Assembly (NCBI RefSeq): GCF_000092465.1 | Contig: NC_014205.1 | Span: 330,001 to 362,000, forward strand | Direction of reading: 5' to 3' | From: Staphylothermus hellenicus DSM 12710 | GTDB taxonomy: Archaea > Thermoproteota > Thermoprotei_A > Sulfolobales > Desulfurococcaceae | Length of the DNA: 32,000 bases | Part shown: positions 1,985-30,613 of the stretch, piece by piece | Layout: every line of letters begins with the position of its first letter | Position numbering within the stretch: the first letter of the stretch is position 1 | Position numbers and translations under genes: made by a program | The notes under the pieces: generated by a model | The model's input: only the letters and a program-made list of their open reading frames with translations | The model's database searches: none | Told to the model about the DNA's origin: nothing

Positions 1985-2632
1985 TTATTGATCTATTTTT
2001 ACTACGTGGCGAATAGGACTATTGTCTGGAACTATTTCAATATATTTTCTTTTATCCAGTTCATTTCTATTGAAACGATCTTTTGGGATCACCACTAATC
2101 TACCGTGTGGCGTATTAATCATACATTTTTCCCCAGCAATTTCTCCTTTCAGATCAATGCATGCTTCCCTAAATAGTTCTATATCACCTGTTCTTAAAGC
2201 TGTAGCAAATACTACCCAGCTTTCCAGTCTAGTTGGCGGAGACCCCTTTATCATTACATTATTTGTTTCCAGGAAGAATTTATACATAGATGTATTGATT
2301 AAATCTAAAACTACTGGGACAGCTTTGGAACTTCTATTTATAAAGATGTTGAATCCTCCATAAAACATTGTTTTGATAATAGCATCTGTGAGGAAATCAG
2401 ACGAGTATATCTTACCCTCGGCAATATTCATGCATATCTTCTCTATTTTACTTGGTAGTAATTGTTTAGGAATGTTATTGATTATTCTTTTTTCATCCAT
2501 GCTCGACAAAATATTGACTCTATAGTTAAGTATTGGGAATAAAACTATTCCTTCACAGTGCGCGATATTAATGTGTCCTAGGACCATTATTGCTGGACAA
2601 CTAAGTAATTGTTCATAAATCCAATTATTCAA
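1985..2632 (-). CDS. Hypothetical protein (215 aa, TTG start), divergent from the surface-protein cluster
   Basis: Long ORF with no recognisable motifs. It shares the 2633-2784 divergent intergenic region that holds the GTTCCA repeat array. Confidence 0.5.
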   Translation of the reverse strand: MNNWIYEQLLSCPAIMVLGHINIAHCEGIVLFPILNYRVNILSSMDEKRIINNIPKQLLPSKIEKICMNIAEGKIYSSDFLTDAIIKTMFYGGFNIFINRSSKAVPVVLDLINTSMYKFFLETNNVMIKGSPPTRLESWVVFATALRTGDIELFREACIDLKGEIAGEKCMINTPHGRLVVIPKDRFNRNELDKRKYIEIVPDNSPIRHVVKIDQ

Positions 2633-2664: not shown

Positions 2665-2696
2665 GTTCCATCGTTCCAAGCCTGGAACGGTTCCAG
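2665..2696. promoter_or_regulatory. GTTCCA/TGGAAC hexamer array including a 15-nt perfect palindrome (candidate operator)
   Basis: GTTCCA at 2665-2670 and 2673-2678. CTGGAAC-G-GTTCCAG perfect palindrome at 2682-2696. This gives four hexamer copies in 32 nt inside a divergent promoter region that is locally GC-richer than its surroundings. Confidence 0.35.
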
Positions 2697-2723
2697 CACC
2701 ATTGACTGTATCATGATATCCCT

Positions 2724-2732
2724 TTTATAAAC
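2724..2732 (+). promoter_or_regulatory. Candidate TATA box for the 2785 gene
   Basis: TTTTATAAA about 55 nt upstream of ATG 2785. A GGAGGG Shine-Dalgarno-like element lies just before the start. Confidence 0.3.
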
Positions 2733-2784
2733 TGAACTATAAAGTAATCCAACAGAGCCTGGAAGGAAAAAGGAGGGTTGAATC

Positions 2785-4026
2785 ATGATAAGCAATACTC
2801 ATCTCAAAATCGCCGGGTTAATCCTGATAGTACTGGTAGCATTATCGATGATCTCATTGCCGGCATCACTTGTACTAGCCGGCGATGGACAAGGGAAAGA
2901 AGAAAATGGAGGACTAGATGAAAATATTAGGGTAAGATTCAACTTAACAATGTCATTTAATGAAGCACTGGATCTAGCGTATACTGTTAGAAATGTTTCA
3001 TATCCAATGTTTGAATGGGGACAAACACAAAACATTACATTAGCTAACACATTGCTTAGACATGGAGATAGTCTCTTAGAGAAAGCAATCAATATGAGTA
3101 GTACAAATGAGACAAAAGCGACATTATTAGCACTAGCTGCTGCAGCAATATATAGTAGAGCACCTATAGTGGCGTATCCAGTGCTCGGAAAAACTATTAG
3201 GAATAATCTCGGAGAAAACCGTAGCTTAACAAATAATACGGTTTTAGCAGTAATTGGGAAAGCCGAGGAGATAAAGAATTTAATCAGTGAAGCCAAGAAT
3301 ATCTCTGCACAATTCAATATAACGCCTCTAAGAATAGTTGATTTCCTAGTAGCTGATGCGACTGGGAAGATAAACACTAGTCTACAATTATTAGAGATGA
3401 ACTATACTGGACGCGCACTAAGTTATGCTGTGAGAGCATATCATGAATACATAAGAGCATATACATGGATTATTAAATCAGTATTCATTGAAAAACTAAA
3501 TCTCGGCGAAACACCAAGAATTACAGAGAAAATAATCATTAAAAAAGTTGATAAGAAAGTAATGGAGAAACTAATTGAGCACATGCCTAGATGGATCAAA
3601 GCTAAAATAATGGAAAAGCTTCGAAAAGGCTTGATCAAAGATATTGTAGACTTAAGAAGACATGTTAGATTAATAGTTAAGATATACAAGGAAAGACTCG
3701 AAAACATAACAGCAGACCAAATAACTAAAACAGCTGTCTTAGTCATAATCGCCGGCTCTAAATTGCCGGGAAAGCAGGGACAAGCAATTAAAGAATGGAG
3801 ATCTAAGCATAGATTATACAATCCTAGATCACTATACAACTATACATTATCAATAGTGAAAAAGGTTCAAAACGAAACCAACGCTACAGGAATAGATTTA
3901 CTAGAACAAGTATTGCATCAGTTAGAGATAAACATAGAGAATGATACAGGCATACATGTAGATCTTACACAAGTATTAAACATAATAATAACAATACATG
4001 TAATACGACACGGCCCCCGTCATTAA
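2785..4026 (+). CDS. Secreted or membrane-anchored, predicted all-helical glycoprotein (413 aa), function unknown
   Basis: N-terminal hydrophobic signal/anchor (LKIAGLILIVLVALSMISLPASLVLAG). About 16 N-x-S/T sequons. Heptad-like Lys/Glu/Ile-rich helices. SD-like GGAGGG upstream. Confidence 0.6.
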   Translation: MISNTHLKIAGLILIVLVALSMISLPASLVLAGDGQGKEENGGLDENIRVRFNLTMSFNEALDLAYTVRNVSYPMFEWGQTQNITLANTLLRHGDSLLEKAINMSSTNETKATLLALAAAAIYSRAPIVAYPVLGKTIRNNLGENRSLTNNTVLAVIGKAEEIKNLISEAKNISAQFNITPLRIVDFLVADATGKINTSLQLLEMNYTGRALSYAVRAYHEYIRAYTWIIKSVFIEKLNLGETPRITEKIIIKKVDKKVMEKLIEHMPRWIKAKIMEKLRKGLIKDIVDLRRHVRLIVKIYKERLENITADQITKTAVLVIIAGSKLPGKQGQAIKEWRSKHRLYNPRSLYNYTLSIVKKVQNETNATGIDLLEQVLHQLEINIENDTGIHVDLTQVLNIIITIHVIRHGPRH

Positions 4027-4092: not shown

Positions 4093-4917
4093 ATGAGTAG
4101 ATCTGCTGTTTTTGCATTATTGATAATTGTGTTCTTGGTATTAGGTACTAGTATTTATTGTAATGCACAGAACATGGACGACAATGTTAGGGGAATAAGT
4201 ATTAAGATAGTATATGATCCATACATGGATTATGGAATAGTGACTTACGAGATATTATTTTCTAAAACAATGGAGAATACAATAATTGATCTACCACTTG
4301 TAGCAGACAACATTAACGACATCATAAATGTTACGGGAAGCGAGGGCCAAGTATTTCCATACACTTATATCAACGAGAATACATCCATATCAATACTGAT
4401 CAACAATACGGATACATTGATAATTACTTATGAAATATCAGGGTTCATGGACGAGGTTGGAATAGATGCTTATAGTGGAATATTGGATTTATCTCTACTG
4501 AGCGGTATGAATGTTTCCGTCGAAATAGTGTTGCCCAGTGTTTTCAATGTTTCAACGGAGCCTAGAAGTAGTTATGTAGAATACGATGATGGATTAACGA
4601 TTATAAAAATAAATAATCCAGGCATTTACGCAGTATATGTTGAGAAATCATTACTTGCAACAACTACTACAATCAGCCCACCCACCACCACAACAACACC
4701 TGCCCCATTGTCATCTATTACTTCTACAACCACTACAACTACTACTACCCCATCAACCACTACTGTATCATCACATTCCATGACCACTACAACGAGCCCG
4801 ACTTCCCCAAATACTGTATCGCCTAGAGAAACAGTTGGATTATCACCATTCATGATAGGATTAATTATTGCCGTCATAGTGATTATTGTATTGATCGCCT
4901 TATTGCTAAGGAGATAA
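4093..4917 (+). CDS. Cell-surface protein: signal peptide, beta-rich ectodomain, Thr/Ser/Pro stalk, C-terminal TM anchor
   Basis: Signal peptide MSRSAVFALLIIVFLVLGTSIYCNA. About 160 aa globular region with sequons. 55-aa T/S/P tract. C-terminal helix FMIGLIIAVIVIIVLIALLLRR. The ectodomain aligns with that of the next gene (LIITYEISGFMDEVGIDAYSGILDLS vs VLVRYAIYNYLDEIGVGVYGLLIDLS). Confidence 0.7.
   Translation: MSRSAVFALLIIVFLVLGTSIYCNAQNMDDNVRGISIKIVYDPYMDYGIVTYEILFSKTMENTIIDLPLVADNINDIINVTGSEGQVFPYTYINENTSISILINNTDTLIITYEISGFMDEVGIDAYSGILDLSLLSGMNVSVEIVLPSVFNVSTEPRSSYVEYDDGLTIIKINNPGIYAVYVEKSLLATTTTISPPTTTTTPAPLSSITSTTTTTTTTPSTTTVSSHSMTTTTSPTSPNTVSPRETVGLSPFMIGLIIAVIVIIVLIALLLRR
4660..4824 (+). 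repeat. Low-complexity ACN/TCN/CCN codon tract encoding a Thr/Ser/Pro-rich stalk
   Basis: Residues 190-244 of the 4093 ORF: TTTTISPPTTTTTPAPLSSITSTTTTTTTTPSTTTVSSHSMTTTTSPTSPNTVSP. Confidence 0.8.
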
Positions 4918-5016
4918 AAGAAATATTTCTTTTTAATGTACAAACATATTGTTTTAATACTATTCGCAATAAAACAATTTTTTAGTATATTAAACATATT
5001 ATGGTTAGAATCTGTG

Positions 5017-6087
5017 ATGGGGATTATTGTATTGCTGAAAAATGTTTCATTAATATCTCTATTATTGATCGCGGCATTGTTTATCGTATTAAATGGTATG
5101 TTTCCGGCATGTTCACAGGAGAGCCTATATGTTTCTAGAATCGATATAAGCGTCTTCTATGATGTAATAGACGATCTTGGTTTTGTTGAGGAAAACATCT
5201 CTTTAAACACAGTACCGACTCAATTAATAGAGATTGATGCGCCGCTTATTCCTCCACCTATAGGTGGTAGGGGATACTATGAACTAATAAACATAAGTTA
5301 TTCATCTAACCACAAAAATGTATATCTAAGCTATAGTGTTGATAGGAAGAATAACATGGTGAAACTAGTATTTAATGCTACGAGAACTGTTCTGGTCAGA
5401 TACGCCATCTATAACTATCTAGATGAGATCGGTGTGGGGGTTTATGGTTTACTAATAGATTTATCAAACTTCTCAATAGCTAATAGTATCCATGCTAGGA
5501 TAAGAATCATAGGCAATTATACTGTAGATGTATATCCATCATTAAACACGGGCATAACGAAAAGTAAAGATGTGGTTGCTATAGAATTAAATGATCCACA
5601 ACCCTACACTATAATAATAGTTGAAGAAGGCTTTGGAGGAATAACGACTCTCCCCACGACTTCGCCAACTACAAATGTAGAAACGGGGGCTCAGCAGCAA
5701 CCATTAGCTGTTCTGGAAACTAATAATTTAATCCTTATACTAGTTGTAGCAGTAATAGCATTATTATTACTATATCTATTTTGGAGAAGACACGGAGCTG
5801 ATGTGGAGGTTGAAACAATTGCTCCAGGCGATATCTTAAGTGATGAAACGGTGAGGGATATTATTGTGACAGTAGGTGATTCTGGAGGAGAAATTAAACA
5901 AAGTGATCTTGTTAGAGCAACTGGCAGGCCCAAATCAACGATAAGTAGGAAAGTAAAGAGATTAGCTGAGGAAGGATATACCGAGATAATTCGTAAAGGC
6001 AAATATAATATTGTAAAACTAACCCCACAAGGAAAAGAGATTTATGAGAAAATAAAATCCGGGGAGAAGAGCAAGAATGAGCGATAA
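5017..6087 (+). CDS. Membrane-tethered winged-HTH transcription regulator with extracellular sensor-like domain
   Basis: Signal/anchor helix (SLISLLLIAALFIVLNGMFPACS). About 200 aa ectodomain paralogous to the 4093 protein. Short T/P linker. TM helix (LILILVVAVIALLLLYLFWRR, nt ~5725-5814). Cytoplasmic wHTH of MarR/TrmB type (IKQSDLVRATGRPKSTISRKVKRLAEEGYTEIIRKGKYNIVKLTPQGKEIYEKI, nt ~5836-6060). Start taken as ATG 5017; the track start 4936 is possible. Confidence 0.7.
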   Translation: MGIIVLLKNVSLISLLLIAALFIVLNGMFPACSQESLYVSRIDISVFYDVIDDLGFVEENISLNTVPTQLIEIDAPLIPPPIGGRGYYELINISYSSNHKNVYLSYSVDRKNNMVKLVFNATRTVLVRYAIYNYLDEIGVGVYGLLIDLSNFSIANSIHARIRIIGNYTVDVYPSLNTGITKSKDVVAIELNDPQPYTIIIVEEGFGGITTLPTTSPTTNVETGAQQQPLAVLETNNLILILVVAVIALLLLYLFWRRHGADVEVETIAPGDILSDETVRDIIVTVGDSGGEIKQSDLVRATGRPKSTISRKVKRLAEEGYTEIIRKGKYNIVKLTPQGKEIYEKIKSGEKSKNER

Positions 6088-6613
6088 TATAACACCACTA
6101 TATGCACATGGATACTTCTATATGCATGAAACAGGATTGGTGGATCAGGTAATAGTGTTTGATTACTGGGACCCCGATCGTTATTATTGGAAACTATTAT
6201 CCAAGCCTGTGAAGCTTGAAGAGGAAAGAGTATTTCTCGCAAATAATATGCAGTATTATCTTGACCAGGAAAAAGTTCTTATAAATGATGTAGAGGCTCC
6301 ACCTAAAGTTGTAGATGTAGAGATCGGTGTTAGGGGAAAACCTGAGATCGCATATATAGTTTTCCTTATAGAGTTTAAAGGAGAATTAAAAGAAGGCTTA
6401 AACGTTTATGAAAACATCTATGAGGAGGAAGAAGCCGAGTATGAATATATAGTGTACTGGTTTATGCCCGAGAACGCTAGAATAGTTAAGGCCGAACTAG
6501 GCGTTCCATACCGTGTGGAGCCTAATGGTAGAGTATTATTCTTTAAAGTAAAGCCAGGAACTAGAGTGGGTGGTAGAGAAGCAATATATTTCGAGATAAA
6601 ACAAGATGTTTAG
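6077..6613 (+). CDS. Hypothetical cytoplasmic acidic protein (178 aa), overlapping the end of the wHTH gene
   Basis: ATG 6077 overlaps the last 11 nt of the preceding gene. No signal peptide. Contains an acidic patch (YEEEEAEYEY). No family recognised. Confidence 0.6.
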   Translation: MSDNITPLYAHGYFYMHETGLVDQVIVFDYWDPDRYYWKLLSKPVKLEEERVFLANNMQYYLDQEKVLINDVEAPPKVVDVEIGVRGKPEIAYIVFLIEFKGELKEGLNVYENIYEEEEAEYEYIVYWFMPENARIVKAELGVPYRVEPNGRVLFFKVKPGTRVGGREAIYFEIKQDV

Positions 6614-6653: not shown

Positions 6654-6737
6654 GGCGGGTAAATGATGAATGGGGACCTCCCAGTATGGGAGGTCGCCTG
6701 AACAAGCGTGATGTGGGGCCAAAGCGCTGAACCCGCC
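6654..6737 (+). ncRNA. Atypical C/D-box sRNA with a hairpin in place of the D' guide
   Basis: 7-bp terminal stem GGCGGGT (6654-6660) / ACCCGCC (6731-6737). C box ATGATGA 6663-6669. D' CTGA 6698-6701. C' GTGATGT. 12-nt spacer GGGGCCAAAGCG followed by D box CTGA 6727-6730. The 8-bp hairpin GACCTCCC-AGTAT-GGGAGGTC occupies the C-to-D' spacer. The locus is a GC-rich island followed by a T5 run. Confidence 0.65.
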
Positions 6738-6770: not shown

Positions 6771-6838
6771 TAGAGATGATGAATACGCCATCGTGTGAGC
6801 AATCGTTGATGAACGGAACCCGTCCCCACTGATAACAT
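6771..6838 (+). ncRNA. Candidate C/D-box sRNA lying in the priL leader
   Basis: C box ATGATGA 6776-6782. 12-nt spacer ATACGCCATCGT. Degenerate D' GTGA 6795-6798. C' TTGATGA 6806-6812. 16-nt spacer, then D box CTGA 6829-6832. No terminal stem. It ends 9 nt before the GTG start of priL. Confidence 0.45.
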
Positions 6839-7983: not shown

Positions 7984-8589
7984 TTGGTAGTGTCCAATAA
8001 TAATGATAAAACCAAGGTTCATGAATATGTTTCTGCAATATTCTCAGCGCCATTCATAGCATTATATATCCTCTTAAGATTAACAATTGATAAAACAATC
8101 GATGATCTAGTCACTTTTACTATCCTTTCCATCGGGCTTGTTATAATCCCCCTTGTATTTCCATTATTTATTGCTTTTCGTCAAGGATATGAGTGGGATT
8201 ATCCCATTAGGTCTACTAGGATAGTTCCTTTCAGTATTGTGACGATATTCTATTTTATAACTTTGGGTTTAACAATATATTTTCGATGCAGCAATGAAAT
8301 AATTTTTCTCGCCCTATCTTATTCCATGAATGGATTAGTTTCTCTGCTTATTAGTTTAAAATATAAGGTCAGTATACACTTAGTTGGAATAGCTGGGCCG
8401 ATGACCTATTTTTATCTATTAGGGTATTGGATCGATGCTTTCATACTATGTCTTATAGCTTTTATAACAGCGTATTCAAGGTTTTATTTGAGAAGGCACA
8501 CTATGCCACAACTAGTAATGGGGGTCATAATAGGAATAATATTTACGTACATATCGTATTTAATAGTGTATTATTATAATAGTGTTTAA
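7984..8589 (+). CDS. Polytopic membrane protein, possibly PAP2-like phosphatase family
   Basis: About 6 hydrophobic helices. C-terminal SRFYLRRHTMPQL resembles the PAP2 SRxxxxxHxxxD motif, with the final D not conserved. TTG start 3 nt after the priL stop. Confidence 0.45.
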   Translation: MVVSNNNDKTKVHEYVSAIFSAPFIALYILLRLTIDKTIDDLVTFTILSIGLVIIPLVFPLFIAFRQGYEWDYPIRSTRIVPFSIVTIFYFITLGLTIYFRCSNEIIFLALSYSMNGLVSLLISLKYKVSIHLVGIAGPMTYFYLLGYWIDAFILCLIAFITAYSRFYLRRHTMPQLVMGVIIGIIFTYISYLIVYYYNSV

Positions 8590-8715
8590 TAAGTGAAGCA
8601 ATTTAGCATGATATTATAGATGATTTTGCACCTTCGGTTCATCAGCTTTAACCACAATAGTATTTATTCCCTACAAGTATGCAAATCGATGTATAAGTGG
8701 TAGTAATAAAGAGTT

Positions 8716-9948
8716 TTAATCTGTTACTAGTATTTGATTAAATTTCCTATATGCAATCCTAATAATTTCGATAAGGATTAGTATAAGCGATATATCGAAA
8801 ATGATAACGAATATTGCATCAGAAAGTGATAATACTCCTCTCTCTTCAACAGTCAAGCCTTTTAACCCTATAAGATCGTTTGTCTCATGGAGCTTGATCG
8901 GCGATCCTCTGAGTTTAATTCTTACATTCTGAGGTTTATCAAAGATTCCTGATACATATAATACTATTGTTGAAGCATTATACTTTACCAAGTCTATATT
9001 TGAATATTTAATATCTGTTTTACTATCTAGTAACAATAATACTCTATATGGTGCATAACTAGTAATATTAAGTTGGATAGTTTCATTTATAACAGATACA
9101 TCCATTTGGATATTTGTATATGATGTATTTAATCCTATAAAGCCTATTTTTCCAATACTTCCTGTCTTGCCATATGTGAAGAAAGTTGAATTAGTTATTA
9201 TAATTTTTGATAATCCCTGTCCTAAGCCATTGTTTATTATAAGTATTTTTTCTCTAATGTATCCTAAGTTATGCCTATTATATGTGATCTCATAATAATA
9301 TAGTGGAATACTCGTTATTATTTCACGGTACATACTGACTGTATCCATGTAACTCGTATTCTCGAGACTGCCCAAATAATAATATTTTATCTCGTAACAA
9401 TAGACATCATCAAAGATTGTTATACCTGTTACATCTCCGTTTCTACCAGTTTTCGTCAAGGTAGCAGAGAAATTTTTAAGTTTCAGTTTTATCATTGGAT
9501 CCACTGAATTTGATGATTCCCTAAAGGTCTTGTTTACGAGTTTGTCCATGGATTTATTAATTGCTTCTATAATTGATTTCTTAACATTATTACCACTAAC
9601 AATGAAACTGGTTAATTTATATTCGTAATCATATATTTCACTATTAGGGTGAAACGTGACATTTATAGCTATCTCGTATGCTATGCTTAACCTAATTGTT
9701 CCGCTTAGACTTTTTTGTAACATATATTTACTAGCATAGATCCCTGAAGCCTCTAATGTATACATTGCAATATATAAGCCTGAAACTTTGAAATTATTGC
9801 TGCCGGATTCCTTACTATAATTAATTGGTTGAGCATACAATGATTTGTTCCCGAAAACTATGCTGGGACTTATTATATTAAATAGAATAACTAGGAAGAT
9901 AATCAACCATGATGTTTTCTTAGATGATCCTTTTAAAACACTAGCCAA
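8716..9948 (-). CDS. Surface glycoprotein, N-terminal signal peptide and C-terminal TM anchor (410 aa), function unknown
   Basis: Signal WLIIFLVILFNIISPSIVFG. Many N-x-S/T sequons. C-terminal helix AIFVIIFDISLILILIEIIRIAY. TTG start. Confidence 0.6.
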   Translation of the reverse strand: MASVLKGSSKKTSWLIIFLVILFNIISPSIVFGNKSLYAQPINYSKESGSNNFKVSGLYIAMYTLEASGIYASKYMLQKSLSGTIRLSIAYEIAINVTFHPNSEIYDYEYKLTSFIVSGNNVKKSIIEAINKSMDKLVNKTFRESSNSVDPMIKLKLKNFSATLTKTGRNGDVTGITIFDDVYCYEIKYYYLGSLENTSYMDTVSMYREIITSIPLYYYEITYNRHNLGYIREKILIINNGLGQGLSKIIITNSTFFTYGKTGSIGKIGFIGLNTSYTNIQMDVSVINETIQLNITSYAPYRVLLLLDSKTDIKYSNIDLVKYNASTIVLYVSGIFDKPQNVRIKLRGSPIKLHETNDLIGLKGLTVEERGVLSLSDAIFVIIFDISLILILIEIIRIAYRKFNQILVTD

Positions 9949-22665: not shown

Positions 22666-22793
22666 GCCGCCGTAGCTCAGCCCGGTAGAGCGCCGGCCTT
22701 GTAAGCCCGGAGGTGTCAAGGAACTAATTCAGGCCCGTACAATACATGGGCCGGGGGAGCCGGTGGTCGCGGGTTCAAATCCCGCCGGCGGCT
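22666..22793 (+). tRNA. tRNA-Thr (anticodon UGU) with a 54-nt intron at the canonical 37/38 position
   Basis: Acceptor GCCGCCG/CGGCGGC, U8, D arm GCTC-AGCCCGGTA-GAGC, anticodon stem CCGGC/GCCGG, loop CUUGUA^A, T arm GCGGG-TTCAAAT-CCCGC, discriminator U, no encoded CCA. The intron 22704-22757 forms a full hBHBh' motif: central helix C32-G, U33.G, U34.G, G35-C; two 3-nt bulges; a 5-bp intron helix GCCCG/UGGGC. Confidence 0.88.
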
Positions 22794-30070: not shown

Positions 30071-30613
30071 ATGGTGGATGCCATGGCAAGAAACTTTGAC
30101 AACGCTGACATCAAGCTAATACAAATGCTAACCACTGATGGTAGGACTAGTATTTCTAAGCTCGCGGAAGTAACAGGTTTAAGCTATACAGCTATACGTA
30201 ATAGAATAATCAGACTAATAAACAAGGGCTATCTCGAGATAAAACCATTTGTGAACACAAAAATCCTTGGGAATACTGCTGCTATTATAAGGTTTAGGAC
30301 TAAGAATCCTGAAAAGCTAGCAGAGATCTTATCGAAATGTAATAAGTCACTTGGAGTAATGATTAACCATGATGGAGTAATAGCAATGGTTTATTCCAAG
30401 AATAAAATTGAGATAGCAGCTTTTATAAGCCGTTTAATAAGTCTTGATCCAGATATTGAAGAGTACTATATAGAGTATGGTAAAATACCTAGTAATACTA
30501 TGATTCCCATTAAAAACCCTGCTCCAAGCTGTGAAAACTGTTTATACTACCAATTAAAACTATGCAGTGGATGCTTACCATTATTAAGGATAAAAAATAA
30601 TAATAGGAAATAA
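30071..30613 (+). CDS. Lrp/AsnC-family transcription regulator with extra C-terminal CxxC-x7-CxxC tail
   Basis: HTH DIKLIQMLTTDGRTSISKLAEVTGLSYTAIRNRIIRLINKGYL. RAM-like domain. C-terminal CENCLYYQLKLCSGC (nt ~30530-30574). Confidence 0.8.
   Translation: MVDAMARNFDNADIKLIQMLTTDGRTSISKLAEVTGLSYTAIRNRIIRLINKGYLEIKPFVNTKILGNTAAIIRFRTKNPEKLAEILSKCNKSLGVMINHDGVIAMVYSKNKIEIAAFISRLISLDPDIEEYYIEYGKIPSNTMIPIKNPAPSCENCLYYQLKLCSGCLPLLRIKNNNRK

Follow-up and report, generated by a model that had tools for sequence, protein, structure and literature searches.

Background

How signals cross the archaeal membrane is poorly understood. Here we describe a locus of Staphylothermus hellenicus DSM 12710 at which two adjacent genes, called A and B below, encode predicted membrane-anchored proteins with related ectodomains, one of which also carries a domain of the winged helix-turn-helix (wHTH) type. 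The locus lies in a stretch of 32,000 nucleotides (contig NC_014205.1, positions 330,001 to 362,000 of the forward strand; G+C content ~36%), hereafter the window, whose own numbering is used throughout. A preliminary description, made from the letters of the window, had read B as a membrane-tethered regulator paired with a non-signalling paralogue. We re-examined that reading by profile searches, structure modelling and comparison with 20 related genome loci, which are referred to by L numbers where they need to be told apart.

Genes and features of the locus

The open reading frames (ORFs) of both genes were confirmed on the forward strand, and both peptides quoted in the preliminary description were found in them. 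The start of gene B was placed at the ATG at 5017, as its homologues support, which gives a protein of 356 aa; the longest ORF opens at 4936, and its extra N-terminal stretch has no counterpart in the relatives. The Thr-rich stalk and membrane anchor previously proposed for A were borne out, Ser, Thr and Pro making up 71% of the 70 residues that precede its C-terminal transmembrane (TM) helix, and this plan of stalk, TM helix and short tail is common to all A-type proteins. B has a Thr/Pro linker too, a shorter one; in effect, it amounts to an A-type protein plus a juxtamembrane segment and a wHTH. The two genes are preceded by g2785 and followed by g6077, and a repeat array lies upstream of g2785 (Table 1).

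Table 1. Features of the A/B locus and of its surroundings, in window coordinates (pI, isoelectric point; pLDDT, predicted local distance difference test score; AF2, AlphaFold2; BRE, transcription factor B recognition element)
Feature	Position (nt)	Strand	Residues	Description
GTTCCA/TGGAAC array	2665..2695	.		GTTCCA at 2665, 2673 and 2690; TGGAAC at 2683
BRE/TATA-like element of g2785 operon promoter	2721..2733	+		CCCTTTTATAAAC; 64 bp before start codon
g2785	2785..4026	+		Secreted protein, 413 aa; first gene of module; signal-like N-terminus
Gene A	4093..4917	+		274 aa; no output domain
Gene A, signal peptide		+	~1-26
Gene A, ectodomain	4171-4650	+	27-186
Gene A, Ser/Thr/Pro-rich stalk	4651-4851	+	187-253
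Gene A, TM anchor	4852-4908	+	254-272	Tail is RR
Gene B	5017..6087	+		Type-I single-pass transmembrane wHTH protein
Gene B, ectodomain	5125..5634	+	37-206	All-beta sandwich; paralogue of A ectodomain; pI 4.7
Gene B, Thr/Pro-rich disordered linker	5635..5718	+	207-234	TTLPTTSPTTNVETGAQQQ; pLDDT <50
Gene B, TM helix	5719..5790	+	235-258	AF2 helix; RR of positive-inside cluster comes next
Gene B, juxtamembrane segment	5791..5844	+	259-276	Conserved (V/I)E(V/I)ET...D(I/L)LSD(E/D)T motif
Gene B, cytoplasmic wHTH	5845..6051	+	277-345	pI 9.7; recognition helix PKSTISRKVKRL
g6077	6077..6613	+		178 aa; acidic (pI 4.7); cytoplasmic beta-sandwich
Uncharacterised gene	1985-2632	-		214 aa; divergent from module; common GTTCCA control region
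C/D-box small RNA-like gene, first	6659-6732	+		Between g6077 and priL
C/D-box small RNA-like gene, second	6772-6834	+		Between g6077 and priL
Polytopic membrane protein gene	7984-8589	+		201 aa
Surface protein gene	8716-9948	-		410 aa
tRNA gene	22666-22793	+		128 nt

Topology and domain structure of B

The AF2 model of B, built on an alignment of 20 sequences (mean pLDDT 79), consists of a signal-like N-terminal helix, an all-beta domain at residues 39-203 (pLDDT >90), a linker (207-234), a TM helix (235-258) and a wHTH at residues 277-335 (pLDDT >90) that is followed by a long helix. The TM segment has a hydropathy peak of 3.19 (Kyte-Doolittle, 19 residues) and is kept in all 20 family members. 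In the same members the 3935 residues of the ectodomains contain 100 N-x-S/T sequons and the 1965 residues on the cytoplasmic side contain none; Lys and Arg number 2-5 in the 15 residues after the TM helix and 0-2 before it. These indicators, the placement of the sequons and the positive-inside cluster, agree in predicting an N-out, C-in topology.

The cytoplasmic part of B matches the Pfam family DUF7343 (PF24034) over residues 275-335 and profile positions 3-61 of 62, with an E value of 5.9e-11 and 42.5 bits against a cutoff of 27.6, and a precomputed match to the same family is found on relatives of B. Other wHTH families (MarR_2, HTH_IclR, HTH_24, HTH_27 and TrmB) fall narrowly below their own Pfam cutoffs; MarR_2 reaches 26.2 bits against 27 and MarR 17.0 against 24.6. 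NCBIfam gave weak matches to wHTH regulators only. A search of a library of viral structures matched the C-terminal part to small wHTH proteins from archaeal viruses, with a root-mean-square deviation (rmsd) of ~2 Å on superposition, and the closest PDB sequence is the archaeal centromere-binding protein AspA, a weak match at E 0.015, AspA and MarR structures together spanning E 0.015-0.06. The domain layout of the preliminary description, with a signal helix, an ectodomain, a single TM helix and a cytoplasmic wHTH, is therefore upheld by the DUF7343 match, the AF2 model and the distribution of sequons and of Lys and Arg.

Residues P305, K306, S307, S310, R311 and R315 are invariant in the alignment of the B family, and the recognition helix, PKS[T/S]ISR[R/K][V/I][K/R][R/K]L, is nearly so. 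Mean pairwise identity rises from 30% in the ectodomain to 49% in the juxtamembrane segment and 61% in the wHTH; the ectodomain evolves twice as fast as the wHTH, and a conserved wHTH beside a divergent ectodomain fits a fixed DNA target and a changing outer surface. The juxtamembrane tether of ~18 residues is disordered in part (residues 259-270, pLDDT <50) and conserved beyond the TM helix or the ectodomain. In the model the wHTH has only this disordered tether before it and a single helix, 337-355, after it.

Foldseek searches of the B ectodomain against PDB and BFVD returned chains of the human oligosaccharyltransferase (OST) complex, the N-terminal domain of M1 aminopeptidase and ITIH1 at E 1e-6 to 1e-5. 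The OST matches (8b6l_O, 8pn9_E, 6s7t_E and 6s7o_E, which we take to be ribophorin I) have E ~1e-6, a TM-score of 0.30-0.32 over the query length and an rmsd of 22-28 Å. No Pfam family, Ribophorin_I included, matched any of 16 ectodomains at E <=0.1, and the ectodomain profile found nothing among PDB sequences at E <=10. Homology to ribophorin I was rejected on account of the low TM-score, the high rmsd, the lack of sequence-profile support and the equally good scores of other beta-sandwiches. The model of the unrelated g6077 protein matches the same targets, which points to a generic resemblance between large beta-sandwiches; the structural search suggested in the preliminary description thus yielded a fold class, through matches that are weak and generic.

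Paralogy and distribution of the ectodomain family

Proteins A and B are similar over 134 residues in BLASTP (E 4e-8, 28% identity), and profiles of their ectodomains, made from 9 A-type and 20 B-type proteins, align in hhalign over 155 columns, that is, the whole ectodomain (probability 99.9%, E 3.3e-35). The paralogy asserted in the preliminary description is shown by these two comparisons. That description had also named in advance what would speak against it, namely an external C-terminus, a missing wHTH and dissimilar ectodomains; each point was looked at, and the indicators place the C-terminus inside, a wHTH is recognised and the ectodomains are alike.

A word-indexed search of 5.8 billion proteins gave 24 clusters for B and 3 for A. 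A HMMER pass with an ectodomain-only profile over 1.84 billion representatives gave 76 proteins, which were sorted by a wHTH hidden Markov model (HMM) and hydropathy into 34 of B type, one B-type fragment, 38 of A type and three that are long, repetitive and apparently spurious; the ectodomain therefore occurs in two architectures only. The 20 genome loci belong to Staphylothermus, Thermogladius, Desulfurococcaceae or Desulfurococcales, or are labelled just Thermoprotei or Thermoproteota. Ten of the most distant B-type representatives were also looked at, and those with names are all Desulfurococcaceae, Thermosphaera among them. As far as its members can be traced, the ectodomain family is confined to Desulfurococcales. 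Its B-type relatives are called 'winged helix-turn-helix' or 'MarR family' regulators by NCBI and 'uncharacterized membrane-associated protein/domain' by IMG, the latter being, we believe, the label of COG2512.

A probably arose by duplication of the ectodomain, stalk and TM part of the same gene family. The tree made from the A and B ectodomains by neighbour joining is so star-like that it gives no date for the duplication. A six-frame scan of the window revealed no third copy of the ectodomain and one marginal second wHTH match, at 30071-30610. The g6077 protein was considered as a third, cytoplasmic copy of the ectodomain and rejected (hhalign probability 0.2%).

Conserved gene module

Synteny was examined by tblastn of the window proteins against the 20 related loci, whose flanks had been fetched to differing extents. 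The order of genes is fixed: an NnrD/E-type gene and the 214-aa gene, both on the reverse strand, then divergently g2785, an optional A, B, g6077, two small RNA genes, priL and a membrane protein gene. The genes around the module are housekeeping genes. A homologue of g2785 stands directly upstream of A or B in every locus for which the upstream flank was fetched, and g6077 is found in every locus with a downstream flank (19 of 20, L009 ending inside B).

Gene A is found at eight of the 20 loci (L001, L002, L006, L007, L009, L011, L015 and L016). It is absent between g2785 and B at eight or more others (at least L003, L004, L005, L008, L010, L013, L014 and L020), in the sense of absence at the locus, which is compatible with copies elsewhere in those genomes. 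Since g2785 and g6077 are constant and A is variable, the conserved unit is g2785, B and g6077. A, missing from about half of the syntenic loci, is an accessory duplicate rather than a partner that B requires. The pairing of a sensor with a non-signalling paralogue, which the preliminary description had proposed, is thus not what is conserved as the core.

The most conserved gene of the module is g6077, whose identity across loci is 54-85% as against 29-41% for B. At most loci its start overlaps the stop of B, with 11 nt shared in the window, the gap never exceeds 40 nt, and from this arrangement it is predicted to be translationally coupled to B. The g6077 protein has no signal peptide and no TM helix, and its AF2 model (pLDDT 95) is a beta-sandwich with a helical hairpin. 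It is 96% identical to a protein of Staphylothermus marinus F1 and has 33 clusters of relatives, in which every organism named belongs to Desulfurococcales or Thermoprotei.

The g2785 protein is rich in N-glycosylation sequons, largely alpha-helical by inspection of its sequence, and basic when mature (pI 9.6). Many of its orthologues (in L004, L005, L006, L008 and L011) have a His-rich C-terminus, for example HILMHHHHPRR, ETTHHHH or MHMWMHGHHRG; that of the window ends in IRHGPRH (3990-4026). The His-rich tail may be a metal-binding or anchoring motif. Neither g2785 nor g6077 matched anything in Pfam or NCBIfam when searched as single proteins, nor did the members of the g2785 alignment in Pfam, and profiles of both found nothing among PDB sequences. 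Charges are opposite on both sides of the membrane: the ectodomains have a pI of 4.0-4.7 against 9.6 for g2785, and the wHTH one of 9.7 against 4.7 for g6077. The only recognisable DNA-binding domain within the conserved module is that of B.

Promoter region and the GTTCCA array

Upstream of g2785 four hexamers, three GTTCCA and one TGGAAC, lie inside 31 bp. Over both strands of the 32-kb window such hexamers number 23, where 11 would be expected, and the exact pair GTTCCANNGTTCCA is found once in the window, in the array. Between the array and g2785 lies the element CCCTTTTATAAAC, which, by analogy with archaeal promoter architecture, is inferred to be a TATA box; a near-identical CC(C/T)TTTT(A/T)(A/T)AAA stands 34-67 bp upstream of the start of the g2785 homologue in 16 of 18 loci.

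The 18 regions upstream of g2785 homologues were aligned on this conserved element. In the loci with the canonical form of the element, GTTCCA is mostly found, relative to it, from -84 to -47, chiefly at -57/-55 and -49/-47, and TGGAAC from -38 to -31, with one outlying TGGAAC at -79. L015 and L016 have the same half-sites at a similar distance from variant TATA boxes. The positions are kept in most loci, across lineages whose B ectodomains are just 17-33% identical. Exact hexamers number 32 in the 1588 bp of these regions, where 0.65 were predicted from the remainder of the loci; the loci being related, this ~49-fold excess is to be read as a footprint and not as an independent-sample probability. 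Archaeal activators commonly bind 25-35 bp upstream of the BRE/TATA, where the array lies. The array is thus a good but unproven candidate for the operator of the g2785 promoter, and the preliminary description, which had singled it out as a possible target of B, gains cross-species positional support at g2785 promoters for a site that is a candidate only.

The array also borders the divergent 214-aa gene, whose position is kept in nearly all related loci and which evolves fast (24-37% identity). This gene has no match in Pfam or NCBIfam and may be co-regulated with the module.

Comparison with known systems

The preliminary description called the topology of B rarely described in archaea, which is true of experiments: to our knowledge, ArnR and ArnR1 are the only crenarchaeal membrane-bound regulators that have been studied experimentally. 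It is not true of catalogues and annotation, as relatives of B already bear the names of wHTH or MarR regulators and a survey lists 1,384 archaeal transmembrane transcription regulators (TTRs), about four per genome and enriched in Thermoproteota, and gives single-pass proteins as the commonest TTR type (Demey et al. 2023, PMC10269533). Bacterial prototypes of the class are ToxR, TcpP and CadC. B has both parts of the TTR definition, a predicted DNA-binding domain and at least one TM region. Like other TTRs, it is one polypeptide in which a single TM helix joins an extracytoplasmic domain to a wHTH in the cytoplasm, so that an outside signal could act on transcription.

ToxR and CadC have an OmpR-type wHTH at the N-terminus, in the cytoplasm, and their periplasmic sensor at the C-terminus. 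In B the order is reversed, with the signal peptide and sensor first and a DUF7343/MarR-like wHTH last, and Trans_reg_C is not among the 15 Pfam families listed for B at E <=1. Neither the external partner g2785 nor the internal partner g6077 is related to ToxS or TcpH. The earlier comparison with ToxR and CadC therefore stands if taken broadly, to mean any one-component regulator that spans the membrane, but with the topology reversed, a wHTH of another type and position and no OmpR-type family among its Pfam matches, B is not a member of the ToxR/CadC family.

The nearest studied systems in type are ArnR and ArnR1 of Sulfolobus acidocaldarius, which are, like B, membrane-anchored one-component regulators with a helix-turn-helix (HTH), and which act on genes for surface structures. 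Conservation of ArnR is reported for both Sulfolobales and Desulfurococcales, and its action depends on repeated boxes in promoters; its HTH is N-terminal, its HAMP and sensor domains lie in the cytoplasm, and its C-terminus has two TM helices (PMC6396743). B is not a relative of ArnR and differs from it, as the preliminary description had rightly said of the layout, in having an ectodomain of ~170 aa, one internal TM helix and a C-terminal wHTH, whereas ArnR is without a sizeable ectodomain; Pfam gives no HAMP match in B. ArnR and ArnR1 sense on the cytoplasmic side, and the B family would offer an outside-sensing contrast with a defined ectodomain, a conserved wHTH and a candidate operator.

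MarR and AspA are soluble dimers, those of the MarR family with dimerisation helices on both sides of the wHTH, whereas B is membrane-tethered and without the N-terminal dimerisation helices of MarR, and its scores lie below the thresholds of those families. DUF7343 comprises the wHTH only, and no function is assigned to it; what is specific to the Desulfurococcales family is the ectodomain, together with the anchor-only paralogue and the conserved partners. Literature searches on DUF7343 and COG2512 returned nothing relevant, and a 2014 paper on archaeal 'dark matter' does not describe the A/B family. The class of regulator is thus a known one, already recognised by annotation pipelines; what is new is the lineage-restricted family, its novel ectodomain, with a sensor form and an anchor-only form, the invariant three-gene module and the candidate operator.

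Proposed mechanism and alternative readings

Taking these results together, we consider it somewhat probable that B is a type-I transmembrane one-component regulator that receives its input through the ectodomain, acts through its wHTH on the GTTCCA array and controls its own module. The glycosylated, acidic and fast-evolving ectodomain would stand outside, and the short conserved tether would hold the basic wHTH at the cytoplasmic face. The state of the ectodomain would set the oligomeric state or the accessibility of the membrane-held wHTH, and the input would come from g2785, from some other ligand in the envelope or outside the cell, or from a second ectodomain, any of which might be bound. 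As a co-conserved, basic, secreted protein, g2785 would be the most economical candidate for the ligand or partner. The wHTH, probably as a dimer or oligomer, would bind the half-sites that precede the BRE/TATA of the g2785 promoter by 25-35 bp. Expression of the module would then probably be autoregulated by B. On the cytoplasmic side g6077 is a candidate modulator. In genomes that have A, this protein could titrate the ligand or pair with B in heterodimers that are short of one DNA-binding domain.

Several observations weigh against this scheme. AT-rich spacers and T-runs lie upstream of A and of B, and a common transcript of g2785 and B is therefore uncertain. The scanned region holds no exact hexamer in L002, which has degenerate GTTTC sites, or in L008, where it is shortened by the end of the locus. 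An Asn in place of Lys or Arg in the recognition helix is found in one clade only (L001, L002 and L012), and the array reads GTTTC in the two members whose upstream region was fetched, L001 and L002; as one clade amounts to a single evolutionary event, this co-variation of helix and half-site is only suggestive. The array, a putative target of B, also lies in the promoter region of the divergent 214-aa gene, and another factor could bind it. MarR-type matches lie just under the Pfam cutoffs, DUF7343 is itself uncharacterised, and all of the protein-protein contacts are inferred.

In a reading developed from the preliminary description, A and B would form an obligate pair through homotypic contacts of their ectodomains, B sensing contact between cells or with a cell surface and A serving as decoy, co-receptor or ligand on a neighbouring cell. 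The genes are adjacent and their ectodomains clear paralogues, both borne on Thr/Pro-rich linkers and evolving fast, as recognition surfaces often do; the two types are nearly equally diverse (38 A-type and 34 B-type representatives), and Staphylothermus and Thermosphaera are known to grow as cell aggregates. But the loci that keep g2785, B and g6077 without A show that B works without an A next to it, and we think the pair unlikely. A more specific version, to which we give still less credence, would make the ectodomain a self-recognition surface and B a receptor for contact or kin that reads A or B on the neighbouring cell, or g2785, with its output at the GTTCCA operator and A setting the threshold; if true, it would be a one-protein pathway of cell-cell signalling in aggregate-forming hyperthermophiles. 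About as improbable as the obligate pair, and compatible with the regulator scheme that we prefer, is activation by regulated proteolysis, in which membrane-bound B would be inactive until a cut in the (V/I)E(V/I)ET segment frees a soluble wHTH of ~90 aa. The tether is short, disordered in the model and better conserved than the ectodomain, and two reports document proteolytic activation or control of the bacterial CadC and TcpP (PMC11484849, PMC11323476). The conserved neighbourhood, however, is without a protease gene, and binding of g6077 or dimerisation would explain the conserved motif equally well.

B may also be no regulator of transcription at all, its wHTH docking a protein such as g6077 or tethering a chromosomal site to the envelope while the array belongs to another factor. 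Such a role would suit the acidic g6077, the best-conserved partner and one probably coupled to B in translation, facing a basic wHTH; it would also suit the likeness, however weak, to a centromere-binding protein, and the nearness of the module to priL, its neighbour in all related loci with a fetched downstream flank. Yet an invariant basic recognition helix such as this one (PKS-ISR-R) typifies wHTH domains that read DNA, a conserved repeat array lies at a fixed promoter distance in the same locus, ordinary MarR regulators are among the equally weak PDB matches, and the synteny around priL reaches many unrelated housekeeping genes; we hold this reading to be slightly less likely than the obligate pair. 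That the ectodomain is an accessory of the N-glycosylation machinery akin to ribophorin I or Ost1, A and B being structural envelope or glycosylation factors, is very improbable: ribophorin I is, like B, a type-I single-pass protein and OST chains rank among the top Foldseek matches, but the superposition is poor, the M1-aminopeptidase and ITIH1 domains score equally, the profile searches are silent, and neither the module nor its conserved neighbourhood contains AglB, nor the module any other glycosylation gene.

If B does bind the GTTCCA array from the membrane, as the preferred regulator scheme predicts, it would provide a first example of a type-I transmembrane regulator in archaea whose target is known; if that prediction fails, there is still a conserved envelope-associated module, found so far in Desulfurococcales only. 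The family would make a compact and experimentally tractable system with invariant partners outside and inside the cell, and the genomes with and without the output-less paralogue A provide a natural comparison.

Other features of the window and of related loci

The two tandem C/D-box small RNA (sRNA)-like genes between g6077 and priL have complementary termini and the four expected boxes, C being ATGATGA, D' either CTGA or TGA, C' either GTGATG or TGATGA, and D CTGA; the first has an unusually long C-to-D' spacer of ~28 nt with a hairpin. In most related loci the corresponding spacer contains their guide segments, GGGGCCAAAGCG and ACGCCATCG...CCGTCCCC, almost unchanged. Rfam gave weak full-length matches to the archaeal C/D families sR3, sR35 and sR42 (E 0.07-0.6), all below the gathering score. 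In one clade of Desulfurococcaceae (L013, where it lies at 8575-9150, L014, L017 and L018) an extra small ORF that ends in CxxC (...QPPRCRKCGY...) takes the place of the two genes between g6077 and priL; whether these lie elsewhere in the longer spacer was not checked.

Downstream of priL, the gene for the polytopic membrane protein is conserved; motifs resembling PAP2 are seen by eye (SIH...SRFYLRRH), and no Pfam family matches at E <=1e-5. The surface protein encoded beyond it on the reverse strand begins with a signal peptide, continues with a large ectodomain rich in sequons and is anchored by a C-terminal TM segment; it is kept in some related loci and matches no family; as the ectodomain HMM finds just A and B in the window, this protein is not related to them. 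The tRNA gene scores 60.8 bits with the Rfam tRNA model and, at its length, presumably contains an intron.

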